Positions 12,001 through 18,000 of a stretch of 64,000 bases of DNA are shown in pieces. The position numbers are program-made. Location: positions 144,874 through 208,873 of the forward strand of contig CAYLWL010000001.1 in the NCBI GenBank assembly GCA_964387675.1, written 5' to 3'. Numbering within the stretch: position 1 is the stretch's first letter; the number at the start of each line of letters is the position of its first letter. The DNA is from an uncultured Candidatus Saccharibacteria bacterium. GTDB taxonomy: Bacteria; Patescibacteriota; Minisyncoccia; UBA6257; 2-01-FULL-56-20.

Positions 12001-15000
12001 CGAAATTTCCGTGCGTACAATCGGTAACTCCCGCCATTGATAGAGTTTTCTTCCACTTTAAATATCTCAAGGCCGTTTTTTTCGAAAAGATACTTCAGAG
12101 ATGGGTATGAGTAGAATTCCAGATGCTCGTGGCAAATATTTCCGAGGTCGTTCTTCTCGATCATGGGTTTGAGGGTCATAAGCTGTGCCACAAAGATGCC
12201 GTCCTTCGCCATCACGCGCTCCGCATCGCGGACAAACTGGTTTGGATCCTCCATGTCGTAGAACATTCCGATCGCCGTGACGATTTTCGCCGGAGGCAGT
12301 TTGAGTTTTTTATACGCTTCGGCGCTCCAGAACTCGTGAATAATATGATCAGCGCGCTTCTTCAATTCCTTTTGCAAATTATTTGCCGGCTCACATCCCA
12401 CGCGAATATATTTCTTTGGATAAAATCCCAAAAGCGTGCCGTCGTTCGCGCCGATGTCGAGGATAACGTCGCCTTTCTTCACTCTGGCCATTTTTTGCGT
12501 TTTTTGGGCGATGTCTTTGAGATCATCTACTATTACTTGCTGAATGCCCGAGCGATACCAGTAGTGGAGTGTGTACATAAACTCTTGTGGCGCGGTATGG
12601 CGCAACTGCAGCAAATTGCACTTTTTGTTCTCGCATAGCAAGAGTTCAAGGGGGGCTTTACCGCCGGACTCGCTACGTTTGCTTACAAAAGTGGAGACAT
12701 ACAGGTTGCCGAGGTTCAAAACCTTTTTCAGTTTATTCTCGCCGCACAGCCGGCAGGTTTTTCGCGTGATGATTTTTGGCATAGATAGGATGTATTATAA
12801 GCGCATTTACTGCGATCATCAAATCAAGCAGGTTTTTGCGCGCAGTATTATTCTATTCTAGTATTCTCAAGAACTTGAGAATAGATATTCCTCGGCTCGT
12901 GAGCTTGTGGCGGATGTTATTTCCGTCGGATCGTTTCAGTAAAAGTCCTGCAACGGCCAGCCTTCTGATATGTTCAGATGCGGTTTTGAAATTGATTTTC
13001 AGCCGTCCTGATATTTCGGCGACAGAAAGCTCGGGCCGTTTCTCGAGTAGCTCCAAAATTTCTATTCTCCGGTGATTCGAAAATCCCCTCACAATTCTTT
13101 CGAGGTGGTGGTAGCTTTTGTTGTTGTCCTTGCCCATGGCGTTGATTGTTATAAGCATAACATTGTTTTATTTTCTATTCTAGTATTCTTGAGAATACTA
13201 GAATAGATTGGTATCCGTAGTATTGATTCTGTCTTGATTCAGATACGATTTACTGGTTAAATTACCATATTATGAAGATAGCCATTGCGTGCTACAACAT
13301 CGACTGGCCTGCCGGCGGACCGCGTTTGCTTTTTTCTTCGGCAAAAGCGCTCGAGAAACTCGGGCACAAGGTGGTGATTTACGCGCCGCAGTTCGAGGGA
13401 AGGTATTTTAAGGAACTGTGGGCCGGGCTCGATATCCGCGTCGTGCCGCCGAAGTATCCTTTCGTTTGGGAGGGACGGCCGAGTTTTTTCAAGTGGATTT
13501 GGAAAAAGTTCAAACAGGAGAGATTGCACCTCGACACGTCCAAACGAATTGCCAAAGCGATGGACAAGGACTTTGATGTGGCGAATCTCCACGACTATGC
13601 CTATCGCATCGCGCCCTTCTACAAAAAGATAAATCCAAAAGCAAAAATTCTTTGGACCTCGAACGATCCGCCGTATACCTATTTGCCGAAGAAAAATCCT
13701 TTGAAGGCGATTTTGAGCAAGCTGTATAATGTGTATCGGAACTGGGCGAGCCGGAGATATTTCAAGTATCTCGACGCGATAGCGGTGCTTGATGAATACA
13801 ACCGCGCGTGGTGCGAGGCGCATGGGCTCAAGGCGAACATCGTTTATCTCGGCGCGGACTTCGAGAAGTTTTATATACCGATAAGGAACTTTGCCGAGAA
13901 GGCGGCTCAAAAAAAAGTTAAACTCTTTGGCCTCGGAGCGCTCAACAAGTACCGCCGTTATGAAGATACGATTATGGCGGTGAAATTTCTGCGTGATTGG
14001 GGATATGACGCGAGCGCGCACATTATTTGCAATGACACATGGAGAGAAACTACTTATCGCGAAGAGCTTATTGGGCTTATCGAAAAAAACAATCTGCGAG
14101 ATTTTGTACGACTTAATTTTAACGGGGCGACGGATGCCGAAATTCATGAAGCGCAGAAAGAAGCAGATGTTTTTGTTTACGCCGTCTATCTCCCGCCGCC
14201 GCGGCATGGATTTGGCTTCAGCATCGCCGTTGTGGAGGTGATGGCGGCCGGGCTTCCGGTTGTGATTTGCAGCACCACGACTTCGAACGAAGTTTTACGG
14301 GACGGAGCAACGGCCTTGTTCTTCGAGCCGCAGTATCCACGGCAGATCGCCGAGAAGATAAAATTATTAGTGGATCACCCCGAAATATACAAAAAAATCG
14401 CCGAAGCCGCCCAGCGCCTCGTTCGCGAAGAACTAACCTGGGAGAACTACGCCAAGAAACTGTTAGCGCTCGTCGAATAACATGCCAAAAATAACAACGT
14501 GCAGAATTTGCGAAAGTCCGAAGTTGAAGCCGTTTTTCGATTTGGGCGAACAGCCGCTGGCGAATTCATTACTTGACGGGAGTCAGGAGTCAGGAGTCAG
14601 GAGTCAGGGTGAAAAGTTTTATCCGCTTTCTTTGACCTGGTGCGAAAATTGCAACTTGGTTCAGCTCGAAGAAACCGTTGATTCGAAAGGATTGTTTTCT
14701 ACGTATGTGTGGGTGACGGGAACGTCGAAGGGCGCGAATGAGTTTTCTCGAAAGTTTTACTCGGAACTCGTGCGGCGTGTCGGCGGCGACAAGAGCGGTT
14801 ACGTGCTCGAAATCGCTTCGAACGACGGCACATTTCTGAAGCAGTTTATAGAAGACGGCTACGAGGTTTTGGGCGTCGATCCGGCGCGGAACATCGCGGA
14901 GATGGCGGAGCGGGCGGGGGTGCCGACGAAATGCGTTTTTTGGGGGAAACCCGCGGCCGAAGATTTGGTAGCCGAAAAAGGCAGGGCGCGGATCGTTTTT

Positions 15001-18000
15001 GCGAGAAATGTTCTGCCCCACGTGGCGAATACGAGGGATTTTGTGGAGGGGCTTGCCCGCGCACTCGCCGAAGACGGCACGCTTGCCATCGAAGCGCATT
15101 ACGCGAAAATTATTCTTGAAGAGCTGCACTACGATTCGATTTATCACGAGCATCTTTGCTATTTCACGCTCAAAACGCTCGAAAAGTTATTAAACGACTT
15201 CGGCCTCTACGTATTTGATATCGCGAAAAGCCCGATTAGCGGCGGTTCGGTTGTCGTATACGCGAGGAAAGAGTCAGGAGTCAGGAGTCAGGAGTCAGGA
15301 ATAAATGAAAGCGAAATGTTGAAAAGTTTTCGCGAAAAAGAAACCGAAGACGGAATAAATAATTTGGAGAGATGGCAAGGTTTCGCGAGGCGGTCATTCG
15401 AGCATCGCGACAAACTTCTCGAAATTCTCGGAGAAGCTAAAAAATTCGGAAGAATAATCGGCTGGGGAGCGTCCGCGCGGAGCTCGACGCTTTTGAATTT
15501 CTGCGGCATTGATTCCAGTATTATTTCTTCCATAATTGACTTGAACCCGTTGAAGCAAGGCAAATTCACTGCTGGCACGCACATTCCGATAGTGAAGCCA
15601 GAAGAAGCGCTCAAAGAAACGCCGGCGCTGGTTTTTATAACTGGCTGGAATTTTGCCGACGAGATTATCGATAGTTTGAGAAATAAATTCGGCTATAAGG
15701 GGCCATGCCTTGTGCCGTTGCCGAAGGAACCGCGCGTAATTAGCCACTAGCCAATAGGGTTTAGGTTTTAGATGCCCCATGACATTTAAAGAGCAAAACA
15801 TAAAAGGCGTTTTTGAGATTCAGCTCGAGCCGAAAGCGGACGAGCGGGGATTTTTTATGCGCACGTATGATAAAAAGATTTTTTCGGAGCACGGATTGCC
15901 GACGGAGTGGGTCCAAGAAAACCACTCGTTTTCTAAAGACCAAGGAACGGTGCGCGGGTTGCACTTCCAATACGCCTCTCACTCGGAGGTAAAGCTTATT
16001 CGCATCGTGGGCGGCGAGGGGTTCTTCGCTTTCGCTGATTTGCGCAGGAAATCGCCCACGTTGGGAAGGTGGGGCAGTGTGATCTTGTCGGGAGAAAAAA
16101 ACAACATGCTTTTTTTGCCCAAAGGAATGGCGGCTGGAGTTTGTACGCTGACGCCCAACTGCCACCTCTTCTATAAGATGGACGAATACTATAATCCCGA
16201 ATCGCAAGGCGTGATTAAATGGAATGATCCCGACTTGGCGATCGACTGGCCCGTAGAAGACCCAGGCAACATTTCAGAAAAAGACAAAACCGCACCGAGC
16301 TTCAAAGAATTCCTGGAAAAAACAGGCGGAGGATTGGAGATTTAGCCGATTAAATCTATTCTGGTATTCTCAAGAATTTAAGAATAGAAAATTTTATGCG
16401 AAAAGCCACGAAAAACAAAAAAGGAAATGCCATTGGGTTCGGCTACTTCGAGCTCGACGAGCTCATCACGCGCATACTGTGCGACACGGCGCCGCGGCAC
16501 AAAGTTGACGCCGCTTACCTTTTCAGCGAAACGGTGGACAATGAGGCCTCGGTGCTCAAGGCCGCAGTTTTTCTCTACGGCTTGGGGCCGGTGAATAAGC
16601 TTGCCGTTGCTCATTTGGGAAGAAAGTTCGGTTACCCCGGTTTCCGTTCTTGGGTTAAAAAGCTTGTTGCGATGGGCGTCCCGCAGAAAGACGTTCGCCT
16701 TATTCCGCTAGCCAAAGATTTTCCTCCTTCAACTGATGCCGAAGCGCTCGGTCTTGTCCGTTATGCTAAGGCGAAGGGCTGGAAAAGTATTTATGTCGTC
16801 GCGCCGCCGCTTCATCAGCTACGGGCTTTTATCACGACCGTGAGCCACGCGATGAAAGAAAAATCAGATGTAAAAGTTTACAGCTTCCCCGGCATCCCGC
16901 AAAGCTGGGAAGAGCACGTCGTTCACTCGCAGGGAATTCAAAAAGGCACGCGGAGCGAGCTTCTCGCGAAAGAGCTGGAGAAAATTGAAAGATATTATCG
17001 GGAAGGAGATCTTGTTTCTGGTGAGGAGGTGCTGGGCTATCTTAATAAGCGAGACAAAGAGAGCTAGAAAATAAATAGGCATAGCTGATTCTATGCCTGC
17101 GGTTTTCCCGCCCACCCCATTCTAATTTCTAATTCAGTTCTATTTTACATTTAGGACAAGTGACGACGAAGTCGCTAAAGACACCGCCGCTGGTGTGACG
17201 ACGAGCATTAGTTTTCAACTTTACTACCTTTTTGCAGTTGGGGCAGTAATCCTTGACTGCGGACCTGGCCTTGCTGACCGCGATGACCTCGTCGAGCTGA
17301 TCGTCGTCGATAAGGGAGTCGAGAACTTGTGTTAAGATTCCCACTGCTTTCATCTTTGCCACTTCTGATCCCTTCTTCACGTCGTCCTCCTGTTATTGTC
17401 ATGTCCCGAAGAACTGAGGATATTGTATGTCCATTACGTTAATAAGTCAATAGGCTGTAGGGTGTTTGACGCCGCACCCGCTTGTTCTAGAATTACGATA
17501 TACTTGGTAGCGAAAACTCGACTGATAATAAATCGCCGTTTTTTCACCCAACTCTGACTCTATCCCCAAATATAGTGCTCGATCTACTACTTGGCAAGGT
17601 CTAAAAACGTTAAAATAAATAGGCGAGTTTCTACTACCGGGTATGGCAAAGAAAAAAAATAATCGTGAAGACAAGTTGGCGCGGATGCTGCAGCGCGAGT
17701 TCGCCGCAATTCACAGGCGTTTTGATGAAACTGTTACCAAGAAAGAACTTGAATCTCTCAGAGAAGAACTTAAAGAAGACGTTGCAACTCTCCGAAGAGA
17801 TATGGAAGTCGGTTTTCTTGGAATTATCCACACGCTTAAAGCCATACAAGAAGAACTCAAAGAGCTAAAAGGTTTAGGTATAGAAGTTGCTTCGCTCAAA
17901 GTTCGCCTCGCTCGCGTGGAACGGAAAGTCGGCATTGGTCGCTAGACGATAAATAAAAACGCGGCGTTCCGATGTCCATCGGAACGCCGCCCGTTTGTCA

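Follow-up and report, generated by a model that had tools for sequence, protein, structure and literature searches.

The 64-kb window analysed here (64,000 nucleotides of contig CAYLWL010000001.1, from an uncultured bacterium of the Candidate Phyla Radiation, CPR) contains a sugar C-methyltransferase gene that carries two identical tracts of four GAGTCAG heptamers. A preliminary description of the window had regarded the gene as a candidate phase-variable glycan modifier. Our analysis led to a different reading: the two tracts are probably members of a lineage-wide population of heptanucleotide arrays resembling short tandemly repeated repetitive (STRR) sequences, which are tolerated in protein loops and do not form a dedicated switch. 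The gene and its two arrays are as follows.

14482..15750, plus strand: sugar C-methyltransferase gene of the TylC3/MtmC/TcaB9 type, 422 aa, host of both arrays (open reading frame call, Pfam, PDB sequence matches and AlphaFold model)
14579..14608, plus strand: array 1, G(GAGTCAG)x4G, 30 nt, 4.3 units, encoding GSQESGVRSQG
15271..15300, plus strand: array 2, (GAGTCAG)x4GA, 30 nt, 4.3 units, encoding ESGVRSQESG

Exact matching located perfect (GAGTCAG)x4 tracts at 14580-14607 and 15271-15298, both inside the open reading frame (ORF) 14482..15750 of the plus strand, just where they had been described. A two-unit 14-mer probe matched the window six times, all at these two sites (0.01 matches expected by chance). 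Tandem Repeats Finder (TRF) likewise reported both tracts as 30-nt arrays of 4.3 copies with 100% identity (14579-14608 and 15271-15300), and 29 nt are identical between the two sites in direct orientation. The codon phase differs: tract 1 begins at codon position 3 and tract 2 at codon position 1, and the same cyclic peptide ESGVRSQ is read from both. Read forwards, the repeat has no stop codon in any of the three frames, and its reverse strand includes a TGA.

The tracts had further been taken as insertions relative to the enzyme family, to be checked by alignment with the two paralogues in the window and by an AlphaFold model that would place the inserts in surface loops. Both checks agreed with this view. 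Neither tract is present in the paralogues at 11577-12782 (minus strand) and 21966-23120 (plus strand) or in any of the 24 closest homologues aligned (59-70% identity), and the net insertion relative to the homologues amounts to 6 aa for tract 1 and 8 aa for tract 2. Array 1 lies in the loop that separates the two Cys pairs of the zinc domain, and array 2 in the linker joining the Rossmann methyltransferase domain to the C-terminal domain; at the latter site, other homologues of the alignment carry unrelated insertions. In the model, the predicted local distance difference test (pLDDT) score fell below 50 only at residues 36-42 and 268-272, namely the two inserts, and both were coil. As a separate observation, the paralogue at 21966-23120 has a perfect (CTC)x7 tract of its own at 22738-22758, which encodes the proline run GSPPPPPPPLRP in the same inter-domain linker as tract 2.

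The proposed identity of the enzyme as a TylCIII-type C-methyltransferase was confirmed as well. Pfam assigned to the 422-aa protein the zinc domain Methyltransf_13 (PF08421), Methyltransf_23 (PF13489) and the C-terminal domain Methyltransf_14 (PF08484), and the closest solved structures were those of MtmC (4rv9, 2e-61), KijD1 and TcaB9 (PDB sequence matches 4rv9, 5t64 and 3ndi). The AlphaFold model, obtained with an alignment of 25 sequences, had a mean pLDDT of 89.2, and Foldseek gave template modelling (TM) scores of 0.91 to MtmC (4rv9) and 0.90 to TcaB9. The three-domain layout of TylC3/TcaB9-type enzymes was found, with a Cys4 zinc domain, a Rossmann domain binding S-adenosylmethionine (SAM) and a C-terminal sugar-binding domain. 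The zinc cysteines C7, C10, C54 and C57 and the motif Y221-H222-E223-H224 are conserved in the alignment with 24 homologues. Residues Y75, H180, Y221, E223 and H224 are invariant across the 25 sequences and, judged by their positions, would correspond to the catalytic residues Y76, H181, Y222, E224 and H225 of TcaB9. The protein is a predicted TylC3/TcaB9-type nucleoside diphosphate (NDP)-sugar C-methyltransferase, the C-methylation of an NDP-4-keto sugar being predicted from its family. Because the insertions spare the zinc site and the catalytic motif and do not disturb the fold, the methyltransferase is probably functional, and the inserts probably form two short, disordered and hydrophilic loops of the ESGVRSQ type. 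In a search of 5.8 billion proteins, the nearest non-identical relative showed 68% identity, while the identical protein was present on three contigs, with an NCBI annotation as a Candidatus Liptonbacteria metagenome-assembled genome.

Frame arithmetic supported the expectation that gain or loss of one unit truncates the enzyme. A change of one or two units would end the product at 38-55 aa when it occurs in tract 1 and at 270-278 aa when it occurs in tract 2, so that the 7-nt unit behaves under a unit shift as it would in a contingency locus built on simple sequence repeats (SSRs). The gene had also been thought to be in frame solely at its present copy number. This was incorrect, since a change of three units keeps the frame and gives a product of 415 or 429 aa.

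Heptamer arrays of this kind occur throughout the window. In a census of these 64 kb of the genome, with perfect arrays counted from at least 18 nt, ten arrays had period 7 and none had period 6 or periods 8-12. TRF reported about 20 period-7 arrays, mostly of 24-35 nt, a size range common to coding and non-coding arrays; about half of the arrays fell at gene termini or in non-coding stretches, which together make up roughly 10% of the sequence. Units with a TGAC/GTCA core were over-represented: chance predicts 5.5%, and they accounted for 6 of 23 units in the window (P = 0.001) and for 8 of 13 in relatives. GAGTCAG itself differs by one base from the reverse complement of an intergenic CTTGACT array at 48744. 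Hence the arrays of the window share the features of STRR-like sequences: tandem direct units of 7 nt, an excess of period 7, a size of about four units and an excess between genes or at gene ends. In contingency systems the repeats are concentrated in surface or host-interaction genes; here, five of the seven strong in-gene arrays were located in the gene of a housekeeping cysteine desulfurase, IscS, and TRF found no internal array in the other genes of the glycan cluster of the window. The IscS gene, its arrays and a related element at a gene boundary are listed below.

41224..42525, plus strand: housekeeping cysteine desulfurase gene (IscS/NifS type) with about five in-frame heptamer arrays (1p3w match, 2.6e-82)
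41476..41505, plus strand: perfect 30-nt array (AGTGTCA)x4.3 in IscS, reverse complement of (CTTGACA)n
41753..41825, plus strand: composite module 1 in IscS, (GAGAAAY)n-spacer-(CTCATCT)n, from module alignment
41961..42037, plus strand: composite module 2 in IscS, the second copy, about 208 nt downstream of module 1, from module alignment
42255..42274: further array within ORF 41224..42525
4744..4815, plus strand: gene-boundary element, the third composite module, (AGAAAYG)n-spacer-(TCTCATA)n, from alignment to the IscS copies

Aligned with the E. coli IscS (1p3w), the window protein has extra residues wherever an array lies (gaps of 7, about 24, 15 and 10 aa), about 55 aa in all, spread over four loops. 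Because (AGTGTCA)n is the reverse complement of (CTTGACA)n, this array belongs to the same TGAC/GTCA-core family as GAGTCAG. Both composite modules of IscS are in frame and are degenerate copies relative to the element at 4744-4815, which forms a strong hairpin (RNA fold of -21.4 kcal/mol, z = -5.5) and may be a small mobile or terminator-like element. Sharing of a unit within one gene was thus seen twice in the window, between 14579-14608 and 15271-15300 of the methyltransferase gene and between 41753-41825 and 41961-42037 of IscS.

The survey of other CPR genomes covered the best 120 CPR homologues of the window IscS and 120 homologues of the methyltransferase. Period-7 peptide repeats of at least 10 aa were present in 70 of the 120 IscS homologues, while repeats of other periods were found in 4-21 proteins. 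The IscS repeats fell at four insertion hot spots (reference positions of about 83-88, 171-176, 223-227 and 294-297), where the arrays comprised more than 40 different units and the inserts were mostly 10-11 aa long. One homologue (P0132) encodes SQESGVKSQESGVRSQESGV, which contains the ESGVRSQ unit of the methyltransferase, and the DNA at its locus (L139) reads (GAGTCAG/GAGTCAA)n. In several proteins (P0168, P0138, P0213-P0237, P0235 and P0145) the same or a closely related unit occupied two IscS sites. Three more IscS loci, one from a Liptonbacteria relative and two on Joint Genome Institute (JGI) metagenome contigs (L137, 10001-11467; L138, 10001-11419; L139, 257-1678), were enriched in period 7 only; between them they showed TGAC-core units and arrays in IscS, and the two long loci had arrays elsewhere too. 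Other families seldom had arrays within their genes: among the methyltransferase homologues, 1 of 120 carried such arrays, namely the window protein alone.

The chaperone ClpB served as a caution. Few ClpB homologues had candidate inserts, and their period-7 peptide signal was rejected as evidence of arrays, being mostly a conserved native helix (AQEALQNAQE) together with coiled-coil heptads. As the period-7 peptide metric was misleading in ClpB, the IscS case rests on the insertion columns, the diversity of units and the confirmation at the DNA level. Array lengths were invariant among 13 near-identical Wolfebacteria-like IscS proteins, but these proteins are at least 98.6% identical and say little on array stability.

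Outside the CPR, GAGTCAG arrays of at least three units were found at 120 or more genome loci, mainly in cyanobacteria; the remaining hosts among the matches listed were Acidobacteriota, Verrucomicrobiota, Planctomycetota, Chloroflexota, Bacillota and one member of Gracilibacteria. The unit therefore recurs across distant phyla. Among these matches (at least 120), the modal size was 3-4 units, about 17% of the arrays lay within long open frames, and one array had 46 complete units. In many bacteria, heptameric SSRs occur in excess and favour a size of four units (PMC4692102, PMC4679880), four being the mode for the heptamer repeats of Xanthomonas and Nostoc (PMC4692102). We compared the present arrays with such long SSRs, namely the cyanobacterial STRR sequences of Calothrix and Nostoc, GGGAATC of Xanthomonas and Nostoc (PMC4692102) and TAACTGA of Beggiatoaceae and cyanobacteria (PMC4679880). 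Tandem direct 7-nt units, a genome-wide excess confined to period 7, a mode of about four units, a mostly intergenic or gene-end location and an in-gene orientation limited by stop codons are common to all of them, and (GAGTCAG)n itself is common in cyanobacterial genomes. The differences are that the host here is a member of the CPR/Parcubacteria, that no single unit dominates among the several coexisting families, that in-frame insertions in IscS are numerous, and that same-unit pairs occur within single genes.

These results can be explained as follows. An array-generating process would seed heptanucleotide arrays of about 30 nt and about four units across Parcubacteria genomes, presumably by slippage-type expansion, by local copying or by both, and purifying selection would then sort them. 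Arrays in a stop-containing orientation would last only between genes or at extreme 3' gene ends, where some give the stop codon, and within genes an array would last only if it is read in the stop-free direction, adds a multiple of three nucleotides and lies in a permissive loop. The second array of the methyltransferase gene would have been copied from the first in cis instead of arising independently, because both arrays share one unit and same-unit pairs recur in IscS. On present evidence, the truncation that slippage of one or two units would cause is a side effect of carrying the repeat and not a selected switch. The arrays of the window at gene ends or between genes are as follows.

1637..1667, plus strand: (CTTGACR)n array at a gene boundary, which closes ORF 293..1648 with its TGA (1646-1648)
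8675..8704, plus strand: (CTTGACG)x4.3 array at the 3' end of the minus-strand ORF 8660..9649
21049..21079, plus strand: (CTAGATA)x4.4 array in which ORF 19849..21066 ends, with LDSRY as its final residues and TAG (21064-21066) as its stop
48635..48664, plus strand: (GWGACAN)n array at the 3' end of ORF 47867..48682
48744..48769, plus strand: intergenic (CTTGACT)x3.7 array, reverse complement of (GAGTCAA)n
62693..62721, plus strand: intergenic (ATGAGAC)x4.1 array, found by TRF

The arrays at 1637-1667 and 21049-21079 have reshaped the protein C-termini of their genes. It should also be pointed out that the CTTGACT array at 48744-48769 contains -35-like boxes, one of which gives a promoter-like match, TTGACT-17-GATACT, ending 9 nt before the ATG at 48789.

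Several points weigh against the view that the tracts are tolerated members of an array population. The constancy of four plus four units was seen at the level of contigs, where low-frequency length variants could escape. Both arrays are perfect and show no point-mutational decay, which implies either a recent origin or an ongoing homogenisation by slippage, and the latter would also yield frameshift variants. With 1 of 120 homologues carrying arrays, the methyltransferase is an unusual host gene, and neutrality is assumed. In addition, neither of the net gains (18 and 24 nt) corresponds to a whole number of 7-nt units, and the history of the inserts was therefore not a clean expansion.

The alternative that the preliminary description had favoured is a contingency locus, in which slipped-strand mispairing at either tract would toggle the methyltransferase ON and OFF and produce surface-glycan heterogeneity. 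The gene has several of the expected properties, as the unit length is not divisible by three, stop codons follow closely behind both tracts, the arrays are perfect, and the gene lies within a large glycan-synthesis cluster. The behaviour of the assemblies also appeared favourable at first sight. In Logan contigs of sister samples, assembled with k = 31, ends fall at 14606 or 14608 and starts at 14579 or 15271, with overlaps of 30 nt (k-1); counting the IscS sites named below as well, the contigs L002, L003, L008, L013-L015, L141, L143 and L144 break exactly at arrays. A break with a k-1 overlap at a tract requires a 31-mer from an array of at least five units somewhere in those samples. However, the IscS arrays interrupt Logan contigs likewise (at 41505 and 41979), which points to a general assembly effect of arrays and not to gene-specific evidence; the breaks were accordingly rejected as proof of copy-number alleles of the methyltransferase.

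At the level of contigs and proteins, the copy number showed no variation. The 4+4 allele was found on all contigs that read through the tracts, namely the three contigs with the exact protein and Logan contigs of other runs, the latter 100% identical to the window. No truncated methyltransferase allele was found among the 5.8 billion proteins searched, and alleles with 1-5 units between the exact flanks gave no matches among the JGI metagenome contigs, a collection that does not contain this organism.

The closest precedent for such a switch is NeuO, the phase-variable polysialic-acid O-acetyltransferase of E. coli K1, which carries heptanucleotide AAGACTC repeats. The preliminary description, which considered heptanucleotide tracts in such genes unusual, had overlooked it. 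Like the present gene, neuO has coding heptanucleotide repeats in a glycan-modifying enzyme, encodes a heptad peptide and yields a full-length product at certain copy numbers only. NeuO, however, has one 5' tract of 3-53 units, most commonly 20, whose length differs among strains and is mixed in single cultures; the gene is OFF in 66% of genomes (PMC13001214). Here there are two tracts of only four units, without any variation seen and with arrays everywhere in the genome, and tract 2 lies 62% into the gene, in contrast to the 5' repeats of known coding switches such as NeuO. The tetranucleotides of Haemophilus lipooligosaccharide genes, the poly-G tracts of Campylobacter and Helicobacter and the heptanucleotide promoter repeats of H. 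influenzae hmw (PMC8262952) are comparable in that a change of unit number would alter the expression of a surface-related gene, but the repeats of those loci are long, hypervariable and concentrated in surface genes, and none of these properties was found here. Like arrays stand in the housekeeping IscS gene and between genes, whereas the other genes of the glycan cluster have no internal array. As arrays are spread over the window, the lineage and IscS, the reason for proposing phase variation is removed; the claim received no positive support, and we consider a contingency locus unlikely.

A further explanation would be selection on the arrays themselves, which might be bound by a heptamer-recognising protein, supply -35-like TTGAC boxes for antisense or internal transcription, or serve as functional flexible loops. 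The strong TGAC/GTCA-core bias of units across genomes, the promoter-like match of the intergenic array just upstream of a start codon and the recurrence of insertions at the same four IscS loops in many lineages are consistent with this, and PMC4679880 discusses the ability of cold-shock proteins to bind repeats of heptamers. Against it, no promoter-like or terminator-like match and no significant RNA fold (z = -1.6 and -1.9) were found at the two methyltransferase tracts, 119 of the 120 methyltransferase homologues have no such insert, and the inserts are modelled as disordered. The units also vary widely among sites and species, which argues against one specific ligand. Such a selected function is therefore quite unlikely.

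It was also considered whether the two tracts could act through recombination. The identical 29 nt at both sites, in direct orientation, could delete the 691-bp segment between them and inactivate the gene, leaving a product of 43 aa. Nevertheless, the deletion junction was present on no contig searched, same-unit array pairs occur in essential IscS genes too, and a deletion is irreversible and hence no switch, which makes this explanation very improbable. Although repeats are prone to mis-assembly, we give almost no credence to an assembly or sequencing artefact, as independent NCBI assemblies and the Logan contigs of several runs agree on the sequence, the ORF is intact and the 30-nt arrays are shorter than the k-mer used. 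The IscS region is also present in the assemblies GCA_016181795.1 and GCA_016204365.1.

Two other classes of inserted repeat deserve comparison with the array population preferred here. Rickettsia palindromic elements (RPEs) are palindromic sequences of 100-150 nt inserted in frame in protein genes. The present arrays are similar in being short repeated DNA in frame within conserved genes, at surface positions, adding peptide without destroying function; they differ in being tandem heptamers, and only the composite module (4744-4815 and its two IscS copies) resembles the RPE design with a defined length and inverted repeats. A miniature mobile element of the RPE type or of the miniature inverted-repeat transposable element (MITE) type, present in many near-identical copies of defined length, does not match the GAGTCAG arrays, which have no inverted repeat and no significant fold. 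Repeats within the ORFs of Borgs have units divisible by three. Perfect and recently formed repeats that lie in ORFs and add disordered segments are a point of likeness to the Borg tandem repeats (PMC9879509), whose units are longer and which belong to an extrachromosomal element, unlike the bacterial chromosome here.

The surroundings of the methyltransferase gene were also recorded. Genomes of CPR bacteria and Parcubacteria are about 1 Mb in size, and the glycan-synthesis cluster at about 11500-41200 of the window is large for such a genome. It includes three C-methyltransferase paralogues, several glycosyltransferases, NDP-sugar epimerases and dehydratases, a fusion of a nucleotidyltransferase with a HAD domain, and a dTDP-4-dehydrorhamnose 3,5-epimerase-family gene. 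The last, identified by Pfam, stands beside the methyltransferase gene. An imperfect palindrome, TCTAGTATTCTTGAGAATACTAGA, is located at 13179-13202, between genes and upstream of a glycosyltransferase gene, and nearly all Logan contigs over this region begin at 13179, with one at 13180.

Beyond the tolerance of arrays in loops, a stronger proposal can be made, which we put forward tentatively and hold to be possible but somewhat doubtful: an active process in Parcubacteria may make heptamer arrays of about four units, rebuilding four IscS loops (in about 58% of homologues and with dozens of units), spreading units within a gene and occasionally colonising other enzymes. Heptameric SSRs and a heptanucleotide switch in a glycan gene were already known, while CPR arrays concentrated in IscS loops appear to be new, and the array hot spot in four IscS loops across Parcubacteria is apparently undescribed. 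No description of heptamer or tandem repeats in CPR, Patescibacteria or Parcubacteria was found in the literature, although this search was incomplete and is weak evidence of novelty.

In practical terms, the arrays fragment assemblies built from short reads and swell the apparent protein insertions of CPR genomes. The excess of heptamers in bacteria, long known and unexplained (PMC4692102, PMC4679880), is met here in ultra-small CPR genomes that have little room for junk DNA. IscS offers a tractable comparison of dozens of independent units at four defined sites in many lineages, which addresses the origin of the arrays, their preference for four units and their spread within a gene. If the proposed process is real, the perfect arrays would also maintain a standing pool of frameshift variants, ON/OFF forms of this glycan methyltransferase among them, and the process itself would generally supply minimal genomes with new disordered protein loops.

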